Assembly: GCA_964570795.1 (NCBI GenBank)
Contig: CAZMYZ010000001.1
Span: 42,722-106,721 of the forward strand
DNA length: 64,000 nucleotides
Direction: 5' to 3'
Origin: an uncultured Candidatus Saccharibacteria bacterium
GTDB taxonomy: Bacteria; Patescibacteriota; Minisyncoccia; Phycocordibacterales; UBA918
In this document: piece after piece, positions 300 to 61,903 of the stretch
How positions within the stretch are numbered: position 1 is the stretch's first letter
Layout: the number at the start of each line of letters is the position of its first letter
The notes under the pieces: model-generated
Told to the model about the DNA's origin: nothing
Seen by the model: the letters and a program-made list of their open reading frames with translations, nothing else
The model's database searches: none
Made by a program: the position numbers and the translations under genes

Positions 300-1050
300 C
301 ATTCAATGTTTGGTTTCGTAAACCCAACATAATTACTCGAGAAGAAGTTTTGATGGTGTGGCAGTTCGTCTGTCTGAAATATTCTGAAGATATTTCTCTG
401 TACTCCTTTGCACATCCCCAAGTTTTTCTTGAAATAGTGTTGTGGTGAGTATAGAAGGGAAGTTTCTTTTGCCAAGGTAATCTTGATAACTGCTCCATCG
501 GTACTGAAGAAGATATTCTTGAAGGTGTGAGAATTCCAATCCTTGAGTTATTGAAGAATCTCGAACTCGCCATTCTTGCGCTCCCTCAAGATAGTCGAGT
601 GGGTTGAGGTGTATGTAGTGGAGGATATATAAAAAGTGAGCGTCTGTTTCGATATGAATTTTCTTTGTACGTCCTTGAAATAGAGTACCTTTTCTTTGAT
701 ATCGTTCATTAAAATAATTTGCGTATCCAACATTAAGTTTTCGCATGAAAAGAGAGATACCACCCTCTCTACGCTCTGAGAGAAGTAGATGATAATGATT
801 GTGCATGAGAACCCATGCATGTATATCAACCAAAATCTCACGTTCTTTAATTGTGTTATCAGTAATATCACCAGGACGCCGATTTGATTGTGGTGCTGGG
901 TTTGTATCGTTGAATTCATACATGTCGTGTATAAAACGAACATAATCGCCAGAGCCTTTAAAAAGAGTCCGGCCGTCAACACCCCTGTTCAAAACATGGA
1001 ATAACTCCATATGATACAAGTATACATGTTGGGTTTACGAAACCCAACAT
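300..1050 (-). mobile_element. IS200/IS605-like (RAYT-type) element: Y1 transposase flanked by 25-bp palindromic hairpins
   Basis: tnpA ORF 333..1019 is bracketed by ATGTTTGGTTTCGTAAACCCAACAT (306-330) and ATGTTGGGTTTACGAAACCCAACAT (1025-1049); each is an 11-bp-stem palindrome and the two are mutual inverted repeats with one mismatch. Confidence 0.7.
333..1019 (-). CDS. tnpA: IS200/IS605-family Y1 (HUH) transposase, REP-associated tyrosine transposase-like
   Basis: 228 aa; motifs HAWVLMHNHYHLLL (HuH) and GRTKKIHIETDAHFLYILHYIHLNP (catalytic Tyr region) match the Y1_Tnp/RAYT fold. Confidence 0.8.
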   Translation of the reverse strand: MYHMELFHVLNRGVDGRTLFKGSGDYVRFIHDMYEFNDTNPAPQSNRRPGDITDNTIKEREILVDIHAWVLMHNHYHLLLSERREGGISLFMRKLNVGYANYFNERYQRKGTLFQGRTKKIHIETDAHFLYILHYIHLNPLDYLEGAQEWRVRDSSITQGLEFSHLQEYLLQYRWSSYQDYLGKRNFPSILTTTLFQEKLGDVQRSTEKYLQNISDRRTATPSKLLLE

Positions 1051-6118: not shown

Positions 6119-7348
6119 ATGTCAGAACTAAAAAAGTTTCCGGAAGGGTTTTATTGGGGTGCAGCGACCGCTTCGTATCAGGTGGAGGGAGGTATTGAGA
6201 ATACTGATTGGGCTGAGGCAGCGCGCGCGGGGCGTGTGCCTGTGTGCGGCATTGCGTGCGACCACTACCATCGCTATGAAGAAGATTTTGATATTGCGCA
6301 GTCTTTGGGACACAATGCCCACCGTCTCTCCGTAGAGTGGGCGCGTATCGAGCCCGAGGAAGGTAAGTTTAATGAAAAAGAAATCGAGCATTACCGGAAG
6401 GTCCTTACGGCACTCAGGGAACATGGAATGAAGCCGTACGTTACCTTGTGGCACTTTACGTTGCCGACATGGTTTGCAAAAGAAGGTGGCTTTGAACGCG
6501 CAGATGCGCCGCAGGTGTTTGCACGATACTGCGCCTTTGTGGCATCCCGCCTCGGTGACCTCTGTGGAGATTTTTCTACCATGAATGAGCCGAATGTATT
6601 TGGGTCTAATGGCTGGCTCCGCGGCAGTTGGCCACCCTTTAAACGCTTTACCCTCACCGACCTTATTTCGATTACAAACTCTGGTCGCACCTATGAGTCG
6701 CAGGCACAAAAAGGGTTTTCACCCCTTCGACTCTATTTCCGCGTGATGAAAAATCTTGCGAAAGCACATAATCTCGCCTATGACGCTATTAAGAAAGCAT
6801 CGCCAAAAGCAGATGTGAGTGTGGTGAAGCATGTCATTCTTTTCCATGCGAACTGGAATCCAATCAATAAAATGGTTGCGTGGATTGCAAACTACTATTG
6901 GACATATCTCTTTATGGGACGAGTGCACAAAAAGTGTGACTCAATAGGGGTAAATTATTATTTCCATAAAAAGTTTGGAGACAAGAAGGTGTATGTAAAG
7001 ACGGATATGGATTGGGACATCTATCCTGAAGGGCTTGAGGATTCACTCATGATGCTCGCAAAATATGGAAAGCCACTCTTTGTGGCGGAGTCGGGTCTTG
7101 CAGACGAGGCGGATCTCTATCGTGCCGACTACATTACGCGACAAGTACAGGCGATGTGGCGCGCGATGGAACAGGGAGCGGATGTGCGTGGGCATATGTA
7201 TTGGTCACTCCTCGACAACTATGAATGGGCGCTTGGTTTTGAAAAACGTTTCGGGCTCGTGGCAGTGGATTTTATGACACTGAAGCGTACCATACGTCCT
7301 TCTGCGCAGGTGTATAAAGAAATATGCATCAATAATGCGGTACAATAA
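6119..7348 (+). CDS. glycoside hydrolase family 1 beta-glucosidase
   Basis: 409 aa; N-terminal FYWGAATASYQVEGG GH1 signature, TMNEPN acid/base motif and a VAESG nucleophile-region variant. Confidence 0.85.
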   Translation: MSELKKFPEGFYWGAATASYQVEGGIENTDWAEAARAGRVPVCGIACDHYHRYEEDFDIAQSLGHNAHRLSVEWARIEPEEGKFNEKEIEHYRKVLTALREHGMKPYVTLWHFTLPTWFAKEGGFERADAPQVFARYCAFVASRLGDLCGDFSTMNEPNVFGSNGWLRGSWPPFKRFTLTDLISITNSGRTYESQAQKGFSPLRLYFRVMKNLAKAHNLAYDAIKKASPKADVSVVKHVILFHANWNPINKMVAWIANYYWTYLFMGRVHKKCDSIGVNYYFHKKFGDKKVYVKTDMDWDIYPEGLEDSLMMLAKYGKPLFVAESGLADEADLYRADYITRQVQAMWRAMEQGADVRGHMYWSLLDNYEWALGFEKRFGLVAVDFMTLKRTIRPSAQVYKEICINNAVQ

Positions 7349-7379
7349 GGCGATATATGAGACGGTTAATTTCTAGAGC

Positions 7380-8315
7380 ATGAATTGGATTTTTCTTGCA
7401 GTAGGTGCGCAATTCCTCAATGCGTTTGTCGCGCTTGTTGACAAGCATATTGTGAGCGACGAGAAAACACTCCCACGCCCTTTTGTGTATGCATTTTACA
7501 CCTGCCTTATTTCGGGGGTGTGGATTGTGGTGTACTTCATAGGATTCCTTCCGTTTGTTTCTGATTCGCTCCATATCCCTTCGTTCTCAAATGTGATAAA
7601 GCCGACTCTCGAAGTGGTGGCGCTTTCGTTTCTTTCTGCATACACCTTCTTCACGGCGCTTGTGGCGATGTTTAGTGCTCTTCGCGACCATGATGCGTCA
7701 GATGTGGTGCCGGTGATTGGCTCCGTCTCGGCACTCGCGTCATTTGGTATGGGGTATTATTTTTTCAATACCACACTCAGTCATAATTTTATCCTCGGTA
7801 TCATTCTTCTCTCTATCGGTACTTTTTTGGTGTCACGTCTACGCTTTCCTTTCAAAACCGCAATGGTGGCACTCTACTCAGGTATCTTTTTCGCTCTACA
7901 CTACATCACCATTAAAGGGCTTTTTGAAACAACATCATTTGATAATGGGTTCTTTTGGTCGCGCATAGCATTTGTATTCTTTGCGGGGACACTTCTTATG
8001 ATCCCAAATTACTTTGAGCGTATTAAAGAACAAACAAAAACAACAACAAAAGGCACTGCAGTACTGGTGATTGTAAACAAACTACTTGCTGGTGTTTCCA
8101 CGATTCTTATTTTGAAAGCGACGGACCTCGGCGACGTGGCGGTGGTACAAGCACTCGGTGGACTTCAGTTTGTGTTCATTCTGCTTCTCGGTATTTTCTT
8201 TAGTATTCGCCCAACAAAGCTCAATATTGGTGAGACATACAATCACGACACAATCCTCAAGAAAGTGCTTTTTGTGGCTGTTATTACCATCGGTTTTCTA
8301 GTACTATTTAGGTAA
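7380..8315 (+). CDS. DMT-superfamily (EamA-like) membrane transporter
   Basis: 311 aa polytopic protein with about 10 TM helices in two repeated halves. Confidence 0.55.
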   Translation: MNWIFLAVGAQFLNAFVALVDKHIVSDEKTLPRPFVYAFYTCLISGVWIVVYFIGFLPFVSDSLHIPSFSNVIKPTLEVVALSFLSAYTFFTALVAMFSALRDHDASDVVPVIGSVSALASFGMGYYFFNTTLSHNFILGIILLSIGTFLVSRLRFPFKTAMVALYSGIFFALHYITIKGLFETTSFDNGFFWSRIAFVFFAGTLLMIPNYFERIKEQTKTTTKGTAVLVIVNKLLAGVSTILILKATDLGDVAVVQALGGLQFVFILLLGIFFSIRPTKLNIGETYNHDTILKKVLFVAVITIGFLVLFR

Positions 8316-35777: not shown

Positions 35778-35922
35778 TGGAGGCGGAGGGATTCGAACAT
35801 TACATGTTCAGTACCCGTTCAGGATAGTTTTGTTCGCCTTAAGGCTCCAAAACTATCTCTGAATGGCTTCGAATCCTGAACAGTCTCCCAGACTGTTCAT
35901 CTCCGCTTTCGCGGTGCTCAAG
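35778..35922 (-). mobile_element. ~145-bp tRNA-3'-end-associated insertion: 20-bp imperfect tRNA-Ser 3' copy plus 124-bp element with GAACATTACATGTTC palindrome
   Basis: 35778-35798 TGGAGGCGGAGGGATTCGAAC is an 80% copy of the tRNA-Ser 3' end at 35923-35943; the intervening 124 bp starts ATTACATGTTCAGTACCCGTTCAGG and resembles the element at 54358-54484; the minus-strand RNA would fold tRNA-like but is not a canonical tRNA. Confidence 0.45.
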
Positions 35923-36007: not shown

Positions 36008-36303
36008 GTATGTTATTTGATTATATCTCCTATGAGTGCAAACCTTCTAGTTTTCGTCCTATCATTCTTTGAATGCCTAACAGACGCTGTACACCTTATG
36101 AAGCGCACTATCGTCCTACAGACGCTGTTCATGTTGTATGATAGTTTCTTCCGTTGGTCGAAACTACCAACAACCTCTTGAGGAAGTCTCCCAGACTTCC
36201 TCACACTATGCGACGCCTCCGTGTAAGGTCCTATCTTACAAGATTTTTTTGTATCTATCTAGCATTTGTGGGAAAAATAGAAAGGCGGTATCGTAGTAGT
36301 ACT

Positions 36304-38407: not shown

Positions 38408-38431
38408 TATAAATGTTGTATAATTTGTAAG

Positions 38432-38745
38432 CGTTTGTGATCGCCCTATACGCTTAGGCATATGGGGAGGAAAGTCCGAACACACACCAGGGAAATCCTG
38501 GAAGGGTAGCGGGTAACGCCCGTCGTGGGTGACCATAGCGTTGCGAACAGAAACGACCCGGTTAAGTCCGGCTGAAACGGCTAAATACGTACTTGTGTGC
38601 AAGGCCGTGTCCAGTGAAATAGAGTTGCTTTGCAACTCTTAGTGTTCCGCACATTTCACCAGGAAGTGCCGCATGAGCGCATTGGTAACAATGCGCCTAG
38701 GTAAATGATCACACTGGTTTTCCAGACAGAATTCGGCTTATAGAC
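38432..38745 (+). ncRNA. rnpB: RNase P RNA (reduced bacterial-type)
   Basis: GGAGGAAAGTCCGAACAC (P4 5' strand), GGTAACGCCCG, CTGAAACGG and the 3' ACAGAATTCGGCTTAT (P4 3' strand; consensus ACAGAACCCGGCTTA); 5'/3' ends pair (GCGTTTGT/ACAAAC); about 315 nt. Confidence 0.75.
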
Positions 38746-38772
38746 GTACAAACAGACGCCCCTTCAAGGGGC
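38743..38772 (+). terminator. rho-independent terminator after rnpB
   Basis: ACAGACGCCCC-TTCAA-GGGGCGTCTGT-TTGT. Confidence 0.6.
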
Positions 38773-46350: not shown

Positions 46351-46509
46351 CATTCGCTAAAGCAAGAGAAATCTTTCCGCAGCGGCATTCGGATGAAATG
46401 TATACAAGCATCCACTTCGATCCTCATTTGCTGAGGTAAGAGGAATCTTTCCGCAGCATCATTCGAAACACAAATGCAAAAGTGAACTTTTGCGCTTGGT
46501 TTCTCATTC
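46351..46509 (+). repeat. two tandem degenerate copies (~77-bp period) of the tRNA-Phe 5' end/leader
   Basis: GCATTCGCTAAAGCAAGAGAAATCTTTCCGCAGCGGCATTCGG (46351) and CTCATTTGCTGAGGTAAGAGGAATCTTTCCGCAGCATCATTCGAAAC (46424), compared with the real tRNA start CTCATTCGCTGAGGTAGCTCAG (46503). Confidence 0.5.
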
Positions 46510-46582
46510 GCTGAGGTAGCTCAGTTGGTAGAGCATTTGTCTGAAGAACAAAGGGTCGGCGGTTCGAGCCCGCCCCTCAGCA
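46510..46582 (+). tRNA. tRNA-Phe (anticodon GAA)
   Basis: Acceptor GCTGAGG/CCTCAGC, D arm TAGCTCAGTTGGTAGAGCA, anticodon loop CTGAAGA, T arm GGCGG-TTCGAGC-CCGCC. Confidence 0.9.
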
Positions 46583-46640
46583 CACTGTACACAGAAAGCC
46601 CCGAAAGGGGTCTTTTCTGTGTACAGTGTGCTGAGGGAGC
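46575..46640 (+). terminator. long nested hairpin embedding the tRNA-Phe 3' acceptor end
   Basis: CCTCAGCACACTGTACACAGAAA-GCCCC-GAAA-GGGGT-C-TTTCTGTGTACAGTGTGCTGAGG, a 23-bp outer stem whose 5' arm starts inside the tRNA acceptor 3' strand. Confidence 0.5.
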
Positions 46641-47088
46641 ACGATACATAGGCATCGTGCGTGCGGGCTGAAATAGTTTGGGAAACTATTTCAGGAGGTT
46701 GTCGATATTTTGACGTAAGGAAAAATATCATACAACCTGAACTGAAGCAGTAGGCTTCGAAAGGCGGAATGATGTTGCTTTGCAACGAATGAGCCAGGGC
46801 AGGAGGCACTTAGTATTTTGTGAGGTAACGAAACAAAATACTTAGTGACCTGCGCCGAGCCTGCCACTCACTACCACGCTTCTACCAAATTCTATTTAGC
46901 AACTTGATGCCAGTATACAGAAACACCACCCAATAAAGGGTGGTGTTTCTTGTTCCCATAGGGCTGACCTATGTAATCAGAGTGTCAGCGAATTGCTGGC
47001 GGACGCCGTGCCCTCCTCTCATTCGTCAGCGAACAGATTGTAAGTCATCAAAAAAATAGGCTCCAAAGCGGAGCCTATCATAGAGCGT

Positions 47089-49364: not shown

Positions 49365-49477
49365 TTAAATATTGTACCATTTTGGAAAAGGAAATCCCCA
49401 GGGAATGCCAATTCTTAGTTGAAAAACTAATATGCACAGGCACCTTCCATTTTTCTTCCGGGGGGAAGAAAAATGGA

Positions 49478-49625
49478 AGGGCTCAGAAAATATAGTTCTT
49501 ACAGAACCTGTCCAATCATTGGGTCTTTTGTCTCATTTCACCTGCCTGCCGGCAGGTTCACAAAAGCCCTCAATGAGTCTTGCGAAGTGATATTAAATCA
49601 CTTCTCACACTAACGCTCTTTATTT
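49478..49625 (-). repeat. ~130-bp structured repeat, copy A (inverted relative to copy B at 61698-61830)
   Basis: The reverse complement aligns with 61698-61830 (GAGCGT(T/C)AG(T/C)GTGAGAAGTGA...TCACTTCGCAAGACTCATTGAGG...CAAAAGACCCAATGA...TGGACAG); the core hairpin shows compensatory changes (GAAGTGAT/ATCACTTC vs GAAGTGAC/GTCACTTC); copy A also carries a CCTGCCGGCAGG palindromic insertion and an adjacent 17-bp-stem hairpin at 49443-49480. Confidence 0.55.
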
Positions 49626-51865
49626 TCTGGCCAGGATGTGACCATAAGCATCTTTCGCTCGTTCCCCCGTACTTCCTCAGGAAGATTTTGCCAGATAGTC
49701 TCGGTGACGTATGGCATGAAAGGATGGAGTACTTTGATGGTGGTAATGAGACATTCGCGAAGCACATATTGGCGTGCAGCACGGGCACCAGCATCCTCGC
49801 CATTCAGAATCGGTTTTGACTCTTCAAGAATCACGTCGGCGAGCTCATGCCAGATATAATGATAGGTTTTCTCTGCAGCGAGGTAGAGATGATATTTTTC
49901 GATATCTGCAGTTATTTCTCTGACTGCGGTATGGAGTCCTGTGAGTATCTCGGTATCGCGCGGTGAGAGGGTGGGGGAGGTGCTGTAATCTGCATCAGCG
50001 ATATTGGTAAGGATGAAACGACTAATATTCCAAACTTTGTTTGCAAAGTGCTTGTATCCGCGTACTTTATCTTCGGCGAGTGGTACATCATTTCCAGGAG
50101 CGGCACCGATGATGAGTGAAAGACGTGTTGCGTCGGCGCCATACTTTTCAATCATATCGAGCGGATCCATCACATTCCCGAGAGACTTCGACATTTTCTT
50201 TCCCTTTGCATCGCGCACAAGGCCGTGGAGGTATACGTGTTTAAAGGGTACTTGCCCAAGGTGGAACGTGCTCATGAGCACCATACGTGCTACCCAGAAG
50301 AAAATAATGTCGTACCCTGTTTCAAGAAGGGTGGTGGGATGATACCGCTTCATATCGGCAGTCTCATTCGGCCAGCCGAGTGTCGAGAAGGTCCAAAGAC
50401 CAGAAGAGAACCAGGTGTCGAGTGTGTCGGGGTCCTGTTCCCAGTCTTCGCCTTCAGGGGCGGCTACATCACAGAAAACCTCATCACCCCTGTACCAAAC
50501 AGGAATACGATGCCCATACCATATCTGGCGAGAGATACACCAGTCGCGGAGGTTATTAATCCAGTTGTCGTATACTCGTTCGAAACGGTCGGGGAAAATA
50601 GTCACACCACCGCCAGTTACTGCAGTATGCATAAGGGTTTTAAGAGTGACGGTATCGCCTTCTTGTATGCCTGGTATTTCAGAATGTCCCATCGTGAATT
50701 CCTTATTCACATCAATCCACCATTGGAGTTTTGGAAGCGGCTCTATGATTGCACCAGTGCGCTCTGCGGTAGAGACATTTTGTGAAATAGCTTCTTCCTT
50801 CTGAAGGAGTCCTTCTTCGCGAAGGAAAGCGACGACAGTCTCGCGCGCTTCGCCGACTTTCATACCGCTGAGGCGGCCGTCCACGGTCATCTTTGCGTAC
50901 TCGTTGATTACCTGTGGGCGCGCGAGATTGTGACGGTCGGCAATCTCCCAGTCTACCTGGCTGTGTGCAGGAGTAACGCCGAGTGCACCCGTACCAAAGT
51001 CTTTTTCCACACTCTCATCTGCTACTACTTTGATATGGAGCGGCACATCACAAAAGACTACATCATATTCTTTTCCTATATATGCTTTGTACCGCTCATC
51101 ATCGGGATGTACGGCCACTGCAGTATCACCCACCTTTGTTTCGGGACGTGTGGTGGAAATAGGAATAGGGAAGTCCTTGCTATAGGTGAAGGTGTACATT
51201 GTCGCCGTGCGCTCTTCATAGATAATCTCATCATCTGAGATAGTGGTTTGCCCCTTGGGGTCCCAGTTTACAATACGTGCACCGCGATAAATAAGTCCTG
51301 CATCATACATGCGCTTAAATGCAGTAGTGACTGCATGGTACCGCGCTTCATCGAGGGTGAATGCGTAGCGACTCCAGTCGAGCGAGGAGCCCATATGCTT
51401 CGTTTGATTGATAATGGTATTTTTGCTTTCTTCAGCAAAGGCGTTTACACGGCGAAGCAGTTCGTCACGACCAAGGTCGTAGCGACTTTTGCCTTCTTCC
51501 TTGTATATTATTTTTTCCACCTTCGACTGCGTCGCAATTGCGGCAGAGTCAGTGCCCGGGAGCCAAAGTGTGGGCTTTCCAAGCATGCGGTTGTATCGCA
51601 CAAGAATGTCTTCAATAGCGAGCATTGCCGCATGTCCCATGTGAAGGGTACCGGTAACATTGGGAGGAGGGAGAACGATAGAAAAAGATTCCTTGGTTTC
51701 ATCAGCAATACCATCTTTGATACAGGTATCAGGATTGAAATAGCCTGAAGATTCCCACATTTCGTAGGTTTTTTCCTCATGCTCTTGTGCATTATAGGGT
51801 TGTAAAAAAATCTCGGGGATGTGTGGCACTGCGCTATTATTTTTTTGTAGTGTTTCTTCGCTCAT
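49610..51865 (-). CDS. valS: valine--tRNA ligase
   Basis: Class I aaRS: PPNVTGTLHMGHA (HIGH), KMSKSLGN, and the ValRS editing and anticodon-binding domains; start taken at MSEETL, the ORF track extends to 51916. Confidence 0.95.
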   Translation of the reverse strand: MSEETLQKNNSAVPHIPEIFLQPYNAQEHEEKTYEMWESSGYFNPDTCIKDGIADETKESFSIVLPPPNVTGTLHMGHAAMLAIEDILVRYNRMLGKPTLWLPGTDSAAIATQSKVEKIIYKEEGKSRYDLGRDELLRRVNAFAEESKNTIINQTKHMGSSLDWSRYAFTLDEARYHAVTTAFKRMYDAGLIYRGARIVNWDPKGQTTISDDEIIYEERTATMYTFTYSKDFPIPISTTRPETKVGDTAVAVHPDDERYKAYIGKEYDVVFCDVPLHIKVVADESVEKDFGTGALGVTPAHSQVDWEIADRHNLARPQVINEYAKMTVDGRLSGMKVGEARETVVAFLREEGLLQKEEAISQNVSTAERTGAIIEPLPKLQWWIDVNKEFTMGHSEIPGIQEGDTVTLKTLMHTAVTGGGVTIFPDRFERVYDNWINNLRDWCISRQIWYGHRIPVWYRGDEVFCDVAAPEGEDWEQDPDTLDTWFSSGLWTFSTLGWPNETADMKRYHPTTLLETGYDIIFFWVARMVLMSTFHLGQVPFKHVYLHGLVRDAKGKKMSKSLGNVMDPLDMIEKYGADATRLSLIIGAAPGNDVPLAEDKVRGYKHFANKVWNISRFILTNIADADYSTSPTLSPRDTEILTGLHTAVREITADIEKYHLYLAAEKTYHYIWHELADVILEESKPILNGEDAGARAARQYVLRECLITTIKVLHPFMPYVTETIWQNLPEEVRGNERKMLMVTSWPENKER

Positions 51866-54039: not shown

Positions 54040-54337
54040 GAAATTTCTACGCTGTGGCTCGCATCAGGGTCCGGAAGCAAAGCCTTTTGCTTGGTGGTGT
54101 CAGGTTACTAATTCGCTGCTCCAATAAACTGTTCGTGGTCACGAATCGCTAACTATATTTCTTCGCTACGCTCGAAATCCAGTAAGCGTTCTCGACCCCC
54201 GCCTCGCGGTTTTTCTTTCTGAGAAGAAAGAAAAACATCGCTGTGGCTCGCACTGAGGTACGCAGGCAAAGCAGTTTGCCTGCTAAACCAAAAAACAATC
54301 ATTCCTAAGAATGATTGTTTTTTGGTTTACCTCAGTG
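54040..54337. repeat. tRNA-trailer repeat region: ~85-bp dispersed repeat plus two-hairpin module (copy 1 of 2)
   Basis: 54118-54210 (GTGGTCACGAATCGCTAAC...TTCTCGACCCCCGCCTCGCGG) is homologous to 60845-60925; 54251-54337 is CACTGAGGTA-[GCAGGCAAA-GCAG-TTTGCCTGC]-[TAAACCAAAAAACAATCATTC-CTAAGA-GAATGATTGTTTTTTGGTTTA]-TACCTCAGTG; CGCTGTGGCTCGCA occurs twice. Confidence 0.5.
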
Positions 54338-54485
54338 CGCGATACAGGACTTGAACATTACATGTTCCGTTCAGGTTGTATGACGATTTCTTCCGTTGGT
54401 CGAAATCGTCGACAACCTCTTCAAGTCCAGGGCGACTGTTTACTAAAAAAAGCCAGACACAAGGCCTGACTATTTTTAGTAAAAG
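54335..54485 (-). mobile_element. ~150-bp insertion at the tRNA-Val 3' end: 23-bp perfect direct repeat of the tRNA 3' end flanking a 127-bp element
   Basis: GTGCGCGATACAGGACTTGAAC occurs at 54335-54357 and again as the real tRNA-Val 3' end at 54485-54507; the intervening 127 bp starts ATTACATGTTCCGTTCAGG, resembles the tRNA-Ser(GGA) element and holds a long bulged hairpin (GACGATTTC...GAAATCGTC). Confidence 0.5.
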
Positions 54486-61172: not shown

Positions 61173-61244
61173 TGACCCCACGGAGAATCGAACTCCGATT
61201 TCCAGGATGAAAACCTGATGTCCTAACCGTTAGACGATGGGGCC
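61173..61244 (-). tRNA. tRNA-Glu (anticodon UUC)
   Basis: Acceptor GGCCCCA/TGGGGTC, D arm TCGTCTAACGGTTAGGACA, anticodon arm TCAGG-TTTTCAT-CCTGG, T arm CGGAG-TTCGATT-CTCCG; no CCA. Confidence 0.85.
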
Positions 61245-61462
61245 GGACGAAATTCTTTAATTTTGTCCGGCCCCATCGTCGATGACGAGGGGTGAGAAAG
61301 TCTGGGAGACTTTCGCAAGACCTTGCCTGATATTTTTTGAGGCAAAAAGCCGAAGAAAAATATCGACAAGGTGTACAGTCCCTGTAAGGGACAATATACT
61401 CCGAACCTCGCTATACTACCGAAAAATCAAAAAAAATGCTAGTTTTATAATTCATACACTCT

Positions 61463-61549
61463 GGAAGAGTGGCTGAGAGGTTGAAGGCACATGTCTCGAA
61501 AACATGCATGGGGGAAACCCCATCGGGGGTTCAAATCCCCCCTCTTCCG
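61463..61549 (+). tRNA. tRNA-Ser (anticodon CGA)
   Basis: Acceptor GGAAGAG/CTCTTCC, anticodon arm CATGT-CTCGAAA-ACATG, long variable arm, T arm GGGGG-TTCAAAT-CCCCC. Confidence 0.85.
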
Positions 61550-61556
61550 CTCGTAG

Positions 61557-61586
61557 AAAATACCGCCATTACGGCGGTTATTTTCT
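61557..61586 (+). terminator. rho-independent terminator after tRNA-Ser
   Basis: AAAATACCGCC-ATTAC-GGCGGTTATTTTC. Confidence 0.6.
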
Positions 61587-61697
61587 TGAGCGGAAGAGGA
61601 ACAAAGCACCTGCGTGCTTTGTGTGGGGATTTGAAAATGCAAAGTATATTTTCTGCTTTCATAATGCAGAAAATACTTTGCATCGGGCAGGTAATTC

Positions 61698-61830
61698 TTA
61701 TGAGCGTCAGCGTGAGAAGTGACTTGATGTCACTTCGCAAGACTCATTGAGGACTTTTGTGAATGAAATGAAACAAAAGACCCAATGAGTGGACAGTTCC
61801 TGTAAGGAATTAGAATTGGACGCCGAATCC
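61698..61830 (+). repeat. ~130-bp structured repeat, copy B
   Basis: See copy A (49478-49625); contains hairpin GAAGTGAC-TTGAT-GTCACTTC and the conserved CAAAAGACCCAATGAGTGGACAG block; also a palindrome GCAAAGTATATTTTCTGC...GCAGAAAATACTTTGC just upstream (61637-61680). Confidence 0.55.
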
Positions 61831-61903
61831 ACCCCCCCAATAAATAATTTATCAAAAACGCATATTCTCAAATCCCCCTATCACCCCATGCTATGATATA
61901 CGC

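Follow-up and report, generated by a model that had tools for sequence, protein, structure and literature searches.

A three-hairpin, non-coding repeat dispersed through Patescibacteria and inserted in tRNA genes, gene ends and its own copies

The small structured interspersed repeats of bacteria include the repetitive extragenic palindromic (REP) sequences and their doublets (REPINs), miniature relatives of the IS200/IS605 insertion sequences (ISs), Rickettsia palindromic elements (RPEs), enterobacterial repetitive intergenic consensus (ERIC) sequences, also called intergenic repeat units (IRUs), and Correia elements. REP sequences and REPINs are imperfect palindromes of 20–40 nt with a conserved 5′ tetranucleotide, often arranged as inverted doublets; RPEs, ERIC/IRU sequences and Correia elements are essentially single long imperfect palindromes that do not extend beyond a genus or family; those of the Correia type end in inverted repeats and have a TA duplication. 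Here we describe a three-hairpin element in a 64,000-nt stretch of DNA (the window) from an uncultured Candidatus Saccharibacteria bacterium, a member of the Patescibacteria. The genomes of this phylum are among the smallest and most streamlined, yet the window carries eight copies of ~100 nt, named A to H. The element is multi-copy and non-coding, is structured in a strand-specific manner, occurs phylum-wide and is not tied to a fixed position; genes and its own copies serve as insertion sites, purines followed by G being preferred, and the ends of its targets are frequently duplicated. We favour, with moderate confidence, the reading that copies A and B belong to a large, non-autonomous insertional family that is dispersed in Patescibacteria (Paceibacteria/Parcubacteria) and mobile via a single strand. 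The family is apparently undescribed: literature on introns, ribozymes, repeats, retroelements and tRNA fragments in Patescibacteria, or the Candidate Phyla Radiation (CPR), yielded no matching element, only papers on group I introns of tRNAs.

A sequence-only reading of the window had singled out copies A (49495–49608, minus strand) and B (61712–61809, plus strand) as an inverted pair, and this pair was recovered. Both copies are of the main type (GTGAG...CTGTAAGAAC) and were scored by our covariance model R1, described below, at 87.9 bits (E = 8.7e-19) and 115.3 bits (E = 3.4e-25), respectively; they lie 12 kb apart in opposite orientation and are ~90% identical over ~105 nt. A repeat finder returned arms of 62 nt with 90% complementarity (49557–49618 and 61702–61763) and of 43 nt with 91% complementarity (49498–49540 and 61764–61806). 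The sole gap in the A/B alignment is the palindromic insertion that the same reading had ascribed to copy A, a 16-nt stretch at the tip of helix P2 (49541–49556, minus strand; CCTGCCGGCAGGCAGG on the element strand, with CCTGCCGGCAGG as the palindrome inside), which is predicted to fold as an additional 7-bp hairpin on the long helix; a similar insertion at the tip of P2 is present in one locus outside the window (L049). Covariation in hairpin 1 had also been claimed and was found as GTGAT/ATCAC in A versus GTGAC/GTCAC in B, to which hairpin 3 adds two further compensatory changes (GTTC/GAAC versus TTCC/GGAA); one pair of the long helix is disrupted in A (CAATGATT versus CAATGAGT). A 20-nt core, CTTCGCAAGACTCATTGAGG, has only two sites, A and B, with up to three mismatches allowed and none expected. 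Both copies folded much more stably than shuffled sequences, with z = -5.1 (A) and z = -6.8 (B). Since the opposite strands of A and B folded about equally well, thermodynamics cannot pick the strand, and only the asymmetry between G-U and A-C pairs discriminates.

Over a length of ~90–115 nt, the element runs from GTGAG through hairpin 1 (P1), (T)CGCAAGA, the long hairpin 2 (P2) and TG-N-ACAG to hairpin 3 (P3), which has a 4-bp stem and a TGTAA/G loop (C-UGUAA-G in RNA letters). An independent RNAalifold analysis of a plain MAFFT alignment detected heavy covariation in P3 and at the base of P2, and recovered only these parts because the variable loops were misaligned, so that a hand-specified structure on a gap-free seed was needed. 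R1 was built on a seed of 13 gap-free copies with a hand-drawn structure. A covariance-model search of further genomes, which the sequence-only reading had proposed, gave 127 copies with structural covariation throughout (R1 matches at E<1e-4 in the window and in 99 loci, 789 kb in total and 8 kb around each copy; loci are numbered with the prefix L). In the model-guided alignment of these copies, standard pairs occupied 96.0% of pair cells, compared with 68% when partners were shuffled and 37–52% when partners were slid by 1–3 columns. All 28 pairs displayed both-sided, compensatory changes, 940 double-change cells were counted versus 261 in shuffles, and not one of 500 shuffles matched any pairing measure; these covariation figures are somewhat inflated, given that the alignment was fitted to the structure. 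With the relatives added, the covariation behind the early proposal of a selected secondary structure becomes overwhelming.

What is conserved is the fold and not the stem sequence, which differs widely among copies. Approximately 20 unpaired nucleotides (GUGA, GCAAG, G.ACAG and UGUAA) are conserved at 91–100%, and discrete hairpin types recur among copies in all combinations. G-U pairs outnumbered A-C pairs by 72 to 18, one conserved C.A position excluded, indicating that the GTGAG strand is under structural selection, as RNA or as single-stranded DNA. The ends, GTGAGAA... and ...ACAGnnnCTGTAAGnnn, are non-complementary in all aligned copies, and there are no terminal inverted repeats. The proposal of a miniature inverted-repeat transposable element (MITE), including one derived from a DDE transposon, was rejected on this ground and because an excess of short target duplications of fixed length was also lacking. 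At gathering thresholds, Rfam 15 matched only RNase P RNA and six tRNAs in the whole window and nothing on the element, while permissive scans of B (E up to 10) and A (E up to 5) gave only miRNA-type noise on neighbouring hairpins. No known Rfam family reached its threshold on the element, whether group I or II introns, hammerhead, hepatitis delta virus (HDV)-like, twister, pistol, hatchet, HEARO or IS605-orfB RNAs. HDV-like, hammerhead and C/D-box readings of the conserved motifs were rejected by eye, as the required pairings are absent.

The element is not restricted to the pair. Besides A and B, the window holds six divergent copies, and the genomes of Patescibacteria together hold hundreds; a pattern built from the unpaired motifs matched at least 116 stretches in a collection with one genome per species. 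Nearly all the matches listed are in metagenome-assembled genomes (MAGs) of Patescibacteria, several with multiple loci, and the lineages comprise Kaiserbacteria, Paceibacterota/Parcubacteria, Zambryskii-, Nomura- and Vogelbacteria and many MAGs bulk-labelled 'Saccharibacteria'. Several MAG labels are unreliable; going by homologues of its valyl-tRNA synthetase (ValRS), the window itself falls among Paceibacterota-like organisms. Copies were also seen in MAGs that bear the labels Patiriisocius (Flavobacteriaceae), Azotimanducaceae and Omnitrophica (contigs L026, L066, L058 and L069), and L069 shares an orthologous tRNA-Asn locus with the CPR contigs L013 and L042, which suggests mis-binned CPR contigs and not a true occurrence outside the phylum. 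The pattern had no match among 2.9 million viral contigs, and an origin from phages or plasmids was rejected. The possibility of an associated protein gene travelling with the element was rejected as well: clustering of the open reading frames (ORFs) with a minimum of 80 aa that lie up to 1.5 kb from 116 copies gave no consistently adjacent family, the maximum being 6 of 116 loci. Relative to protein genes the orientation was random (upstream, 58 same and 55 opposite; downstream, 58 same and 49 opposite). Relative to tRNA genes it was not: 36 of 43 tRNA-proximal copies were co-oriented with the tRNA. A tRNA gene lay within 300 nt of 40 of the 127 copies versus 6.6% of positions, an enrichment biased by the retrieval of these loci through the element itself.

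When R1 was run on the window with filters off, eight copies were accepted at E<0.01, and seven of them, all except A, adjoin tRNA genes; the pattern itself had four matches in the window, with none expected. Copy C (main type; 61292–61391, plus strand; 70.2 bits) has on its 5′ side 12 nt (61269–61280) that repeat the 5′ end of tRNA-Glu in inverted orientation. Copy D (main type; 36112–36204, minus strand; 44.8 bits) interrupts the D-loop of a decayed copy of tRNA-Ser(GGA), and an 18-nt 5′ fragment (36205–36222) recurs 102 nt downstream, where the intact tRNA begins. Copy E (variant type; 35796–35889, minus strand; 46.3 bits) lies downstream of tRNA-Ser(GGA), and its junction stretch AGGATTCGAA is complementary to the tRNA 3′-end fragment on its 3′ side. 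An exact 22-nt duplicate of the 3′ end of tRNA-Val (54335–54356) accompanies copy F (variant type; 54354–54443, or 54335–54443 including the tRNA duplicate, minus strand; 26.2 bits, E = 2.4e-4), whose internal stretch GGACTTGAA (54420–54428) is complementary to the duplicated T-loop. Copies G (46668–46757, plus strand; 26.0 bits, E = 2.7e-4) and H (46774–46868, plus strand; 19.7 bits, E = 8e-3) are located downstream of tRNA-Phe.

Copy B lies 3′ of tRNA-Ser(CGA), beyond an 11-nt stretch (61625–61635, plus strand; GGGGATTTGAA) that we read as the reverse complement of the T-loop and T-stem of this tRNA (TTCAAATCCCC), a stretch of a kind that at least 10 other tRNA genes also have downstream, and beyond a long hairpin; it is immediately followed by a fragment resembling a tRNA 3′ end (61818–61839, plus strand; GGACGCCGAATCCACCCCCCCA); duplicated tRNA 3′ ends likewise follow copies in L038 and L100. 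Copy B seems to sit in the debris of an older tRNA-Ser-linked element. The alignment of the 5′ flanks further revealed an extension of 10 nt, GAGCGTYAGY, shared by A and B (61698–61711, plus strand, at B) and also present at similar copies (L100, L110 and L083); the A/B subfamily probably inserted into an older element, the end of which survives as this extension.

As the sequence-only reading had listed, the two copies bracket valS, tsaD, tRNA-Val, a kinase-like gene, an ABC exporter, tRNA-Glu and tRNA-Ser. The 5′ end of copy A is 1 nt past the valS stop codon, and on its 3′ side lies extra inserted sequence (49385–49494, minus strand), which consists of the 17-bp-stem hairpin previously noticed at 49443–49480 plus ~50 nt. 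The order tsaD, small ORF, valS, PrsW and Hsp20 is kept in six relatives with ValRS 78–89% identical, the small ORF being absent in one (L124). The spacer between valS and PrsW measures 74–82 nt with a plain terminator in five of them and 325 nt in L124; a scan with R1 found no copy in this spacer in any of the six, and copy A was present only on contigs with identical ValRS (L117 and L118). The spacer of the window is ~225 nt longer (aligned with the five relatives, L124 being scanned only), owing to the element, the 17-bp hairpin and ~50 nt more. Alignment columns ~100–318 of the window have no counterpart; the relatives carry a short GC-rich terminator there, of which only the tail (GGGGATTT) is left in the window. 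By this comparison, the valS terminator of the window has received, specifically in this lineage, an insertion of ~225 nt that includes copy A. The window valS also has a 1-nt difference just ahead of the ancestral TAA stop (49610–49640), and the frame consequently extends by three codons to a TAG 1 nt before the inserted element. As for copy B, a Logan contig with a 97% identical VIT1 (L125) begins inside it, which looks like an assembly break at the repeat, and a relative with a 92% identical VIT1 (L126) lacks it and has a different upstream gene 53 nt away. A shared 5′ leader or riboswitch was rejected, as the genes downstream of A (a PrsW protease) and B (a VIT1 transporter) are unrelated.

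The same comparison bears on the idea, offered earlier, that the 12-kb segment bounded by A and B inverts, whether in a programmed or a recurrent manner, with the pair as substrate. In its favour are two inverted copies with ~90% identity over ~105 nt. Against it, relatives without copy A show PrsW-valS-tsaD-(tRNA-Val)-kinase-ABC in the order and orientation of the window, indicating that the segment is in its ancestral orientation; no recombinase gene lies at A or B, the homology is short and interrupted by the 16-nt insertion, and with eight copies in both orientations in the window this pair is not special. We regard such an inversion as extremely unlikely.

The element is often preceded by the 5′ part of a tRNA gene that breaks off at the D-loop (...GGTAGA|GTGAG, seven loci) or by the first 10–15 codons of a protein gene, and this flank sequence recurs a short way downstream, where it opens an intact gene. 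For 16 of 123 copies, against 0.56 expected, an exact flank duplication of 9 nt or more ended precisely at the 5′ end of the element, and local alignment found duplications for 30 of 127, the control maximum remaining under the threshold. They measure 10–96 nt and abut the 5′ end; exact repeats of 5–8 nt showed no excess over permuted controls, and the excess appeared only at 10–40+ nt. The cleanest cases have 65-nt repeats on both sides, at the start of msrA (L099) and of rnhB (L056, with three repeat-element units in tandem). The uninterrupted target could be read in 11 cases, and in 10 of them G, GT or GTG comes next after the insertion point. Elements of different subfamilies occupy the same msrA codon (GCFW|G) in four MAGs (L047, L099, L012 and L089), indicating a site preference. 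Insertions were also located in tRNA D-, anticodon-, variable- and T-loops, in 5S genes, in first and last codons, in terminators and in other copies, where nested or tandem copies are joined as CTGTAAG|GTGAG; in some loci the element is antisense to its target, a tRNA (L039) or a 5S rRNA gene (L041, L103 and L029). Interrupted copies run from a few to ~40 nt past the element and then decay (L045, L006, L108, L038 and copy D), and the interrupted tRNA, 5S, msrA and rnhB copies examined in detail were partial or decayed, with an intact copy 0–170 nt away.

These sites raise the question of an intron or self-cleaving ribozyme, that is, of an element removed from the interrupted tRNA and mRNA transcripts. 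The compact, conserved, junction-rich fold with its sharp 5′ boundary and the insertions in four tRNA loops would fit such an RNA, as would the internal stretch of the variant copies that pairs with sequence just 3′ of the element, like a P10-type guide. Patescibacteria are, moreover, rich in tRNA group I introns (PMC13011429), which in the published work are 200+ nt long and located at anticodon position 35/36; anticodon-loop introns are reported for tRNA-Asn and tRNA-Asp (PMC13011429). By eye, intact tRNAs with apparent group I introns were also noted beside elements in L006 (~7290–7560) and in L042 (minus strand, downstream of an element at 2830–2927), and a partial tRNA copy in L006 takes in the first bases of the apparent intron. 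However, at 95 nt the element is far under the size of a group I or II intron, it matched no Rfam intron or ribozyme even at E up to 5–10, and an intron of protein genes was rejected, as only 4 of the 127 copies have an open frame running through the element, which lies outside long ORFs. Splicing the element out of tRNA fragments was tried and rejected, as ARAGORN then found only the neighbouring intact tRNA. Wherever an interrupted gene was looked at closely, it had decayed beside an intact copy, which would be unexpected if the transcripts were spliced and makes an intron or ribozyme very unlikely.

Duplications of tRNA 3′ ends, 25–295 nt downstream, were found for 24 of 89 tRNA genes in the loci examined. 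In at least ten of these, the intervening sequence is a variant element carrying 8–14 nt complementary to the duplicated T-loop; these anti-T-loop stretches are specific to the tRNA, as in Val (GGACTTGAA), Arg (GTAAGAATCGAAC), Thr (CCAGGATCGAA) and Gly (GGTGAGAAGAATCG). The variant copies keep P2 and P3, and their 5′ part is replaced by antisense pieces of the target. The anti-T-loop stretch may be a guide or a snap-back product. If it were a guide, the element could be a new fold-dependent mobile nucleic acid of the CPR that either chooses its target by base pairing or spreads as a retroposon resembling the short interspersed nuclear elements (SINEs) of eukaryotes; the three-helix core could then be a new ribozyme or the recognition module of some enzyme, and insertion would regenerate the target gene by duplicating the target end. 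We consider a new guide-bearing nucleic acid of this description improbable, and attach a similarly low probability to an unusual nature of the element in general, be it guided targeting, a bacterial retroposon or a ribozyme.

In the insertional family that we favour, the element inserts just 5′ of a G, behind a purine-rich flank. In these gene-dense genomes, copies survive inside genes where the target has been duplicated from the insertion point to the gene end, and an intact gene thereby persists next to the decaying interrupted copy. Movement would proceed through a single-stranded intermediate recognized by its fold, and the most plausible mobilizing agent would be a trans-acting HUH (Y1) transposase, of the IS200 kind or of that of the REP-associated tyrosine transposases (RAYTs), encoded in these genomes. 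Recombination or template switching at the conserved junctions would reshuffle modules between copies. The HUH/Y1 route is suggested because there are terminal hairpins and neither inverted repeats nor short duplications, and because the window has a Y1_Tnp gene.

This gene (333–1019, minus strand; element 306–1056) encodes a RAYT-like Y1 (HUH) transposase of 228 aa, a candidate only, with no demonstrated link to the three-hairpin element. Its product scored 28 bits for Pfam Y1_Tnp (cut-off 23 bits), and its best NCBIfam match was the REP-associated tyrosine transposase at 39 bits, below the 80-bit cut-off. The gene has terminal hairpins (306–330 and 1019–1056), and the Y1 element is flanked by a 61-nt direct repeat with 89% identity (235–295 and 1046–1106) that represents the duplicated 3′ end and stop codon of an ArsR-family gene (12–296), the same signature as around the three-hairpin elements; in the Y1 element (235–1106), the duplicated target also pairs with the right hairpin and so elongates its stem. 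The flanking hairpins occurred nowhere else in the window and the loci examined, except for a weak motif match in L009. Homologues of the Y1 protein were present in L027, L003, L047 and L107, and in L027, L003 and L047, the three that were scanned, no R1 copy adjoins the RAYT-like gene. A second candidate was seen in a relative with ValRS 81% identical (L123), which has an IS200-type TnpA in its tsaD-valS spacer (1600–2210; Pfam 112 bits, NCBIfam 124 bits) with end hairpins CCGGC...GCCGG that are unrelated to the three-hairpin element. Only L123 has a TnpA in this spacer; the 151-aa ORF between tsaD and valS in the window matched no family and was rejected as a transposase.

Several observations weigh against a mobile family of this kind. 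None of the candidate enzymes is linked to the element, and the hairpins flanking the RAYT-like genes are unrelated to it. Transposition of the IS200/IS605 type normally makes no target duplication and uses a strict target of 4–5 nt; here the 5′ flank is only purine-biased, with G at position -1 in the majority consensus and no fixed target word, and ~85% of copies have no flank duplication. Mobility is inferred from comparative presence and absence, and the copy density and tRNA enrichment outside the window are ascertainment-biased. The median identity of copies was 0.55 within a genome versus 0.53 between genomes, copy B is 83–86% identical to copies in distant MAGs, and three MAGs keep orthologous copies upstream of tRNA-Asn, in which one module has been swapped. 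This identity pattern and these retained copies fit long-term purifying selection for a host function as well as they fit constraints on mobility.

A host function is therefore a serious alternative, though an unlikely one on balance: the element would be a tRNA-linked, co-transcribed structured RNA family beneficial to the host, in processing, stability or quality control, and its insertions would be by-products of recombination. The equal similarity within and between genomes and the orthologous tRNA-Asn copies speak for it, together with the phylum-wide conservation of ~20 unpaired nucleotides and of discrete hairpin types, the co-orientation with tRNAs and the covariation of the anti-T-loop stretch in variant copies with tRNA identity. 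However, no conserved promoter or terminator was found on the copies, whose 5′ flank is unconserved up to position -1, orientation to protein genes is random, and A and B are non-syntenic in close relatives. Interrupted gene copies decay, copies are nested in one another, and the copy number is high and variable. Much of this also counts against a stand-alone small RNA gene, which had been offered as one option for the pair and finds no support here: no promoter-like site was found upstream of A or B, and both are missing at the syntenic positions in relatives.

The alternative route of spread, a quite improbable one, is retroposon-like or SINE-like: in it, read-through RNA would be reverse-transcribed at a target nick with 1–3 nt of 5′ microhomology, staggered nicks giving variable duplications. 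The direct duplications of 10–96 nt at the precise 5′ end, the G/GT/GTG microhomology at the 5′ junction, the strand-specific structure tolerant of G-U and the co-orientation with tRNA genes are what it would predict; the unrelated extra sequence on the 3′ side (copy A and the Y spacers) and the 10-nt 5′ flank shared by A and B resemble transduction, and template switching would yield variant copies with retained P2-P3 and antisense 5′ pieces. However, no reverse transcriptase was found near any copy when the ORFs (80 aa or more) up to 1.5 kb away from 116 copies were compared, and group II introns are reported to be absent from Patescibacteria (PMC13011429). The element has no 3′ tail, most copies have no duplication, and half of them point away from the neighbouring protein genes, so that many could not be transcribed by read-through. 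The Y1-transposase element of the window, moreover, displays the same duplication signature without the need for a reverse transcriptase.

Whichever reading holds, R1 allows the element to be annotated systematically. Annotation can be misled by the tRNA pseudo-fragments that its copies create, one assembly (L125) appears to be broken by it, and local rearrangement is probably among its effects. Should it be selfish DNA, it illustrates the persistence of a parasite in a gene-dense genome by way of short RNA genes, gene ends and duplicated targets; if its fold serves the host or is catalytic, a widespread class of structured RNA is missing from Rfam.

Other repeats were seen in the neighbourhood of tRNA genes and of the element. 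A second conserved structured module (…GCGAGGyGGGGyCGAGAACrCTTAGTAGATTTGGAG…AAATATACTTAGTGATTCGTG…) is located at 54050–54282 of the window (minus strand), in L100 (~1260–1400) and in the 3′ flanks of L044, L050, L063, L076 and L111; it is often immediately 3′ of the three-hairpin element and in the window stands alone, beside direct repeats (54050–54093 and 54239–54282). Upstream of tRNA-Phe are tandem 41-nt repeats (46351–46391 and 46425–46465), each a copy of the tRNA-Phe 5′ end (CATTyGCTGAGGTA...) followed by AGAGGAATCTTTCCGCAGC. Long palindromes, perfect or nearly so, occur at 46576–46640, 61541–61599 and 61233–61280 of the window and at ~3590–3650 of L042 (minus strand). Their stems take in the last nucleotides of a tRNA (Phe and Ser-CGA) or the first 12 nt (tRNA-Glu), so that these tRNA ends are followed by their own inverted copy, which may be a terminator design or a snap-back scar. 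A bacterial type A RNase P RNA lies at 38424–38756 (122.9 bits).

In kind, the three-hairpin element belongs with the small structured interspersed repeats of bacteria named at the outset, and for each of them it fails defining tests among those run. Like REP sequences, REPINs and bacterial interspersed mosaic elements (BIMEs), it is short, non-coding, highly repeated and geneless, forms hairpins on one strand, lies near gene ends and is presumed to be mobilized in trans, and RAYT-like Y1 genes are present in genomes that bear it. However, it has three to four times the length of a REP sequence and a direct series of three distinct hairpins with invariant single-stranded junctions, is neither a palindrome nor an inverted doublet, does not flank the RAYT-like gene at 333–1019, and inserts into genes whose ends are duplicated. 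With the palindrome-associated transposable elements (PATEs) of the IS200/IS605 group it shares the lack of terminal inverted repeats and of a short fixed duplication, hairpins near the ends and strand-specific structure. The ends of IS608 rely on pairing between a guide and the cleavage site, and in the variant copies a stretch 5′ of a hairpin foot is likewise complementary to sequence outside the 3′ end. Unlike in PATEs, however, there is no strict 4–5-nt target, the complementary stretches are 8–14 nt long and locus-dependent, and no cognate TnpA was identified; alongside the hairpins and the strand asymmetry, long duplications occur in 13–24% of copies.

RPEs, ERIC/IRU sequences and Correia elements resemble the element in being interspersed, structured, non-coding repeats of 100–150 nt that lie within or at the ends of genes, are co-transcribed and spread in a poorly understood manner. 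The three-hairpin element differs from them in spanning a phylum-level radiation, in covarying at every pair and in its conserved junction nucleotides, and it has neither the inverted-repeat ends nor the TA duplication of Correia elements. Eukaryotic SINEs are comparable in being short and non-autonomous, with variable target duplications, 5′ microhomology, transduction-like flanks and an affinity for tRNA genes, whereas the element is bacterial, lacks a known partner reverse transcriptase, an internal promoter and a 3′ tail, and has duplications on only a minority of copies. What sets it apart is the combination of an asymmetric three-helix core with invariant junctions, phylum-wide covariation, an affinity for the loops of tRNA and 5S genes, and the duplication of gene ends.

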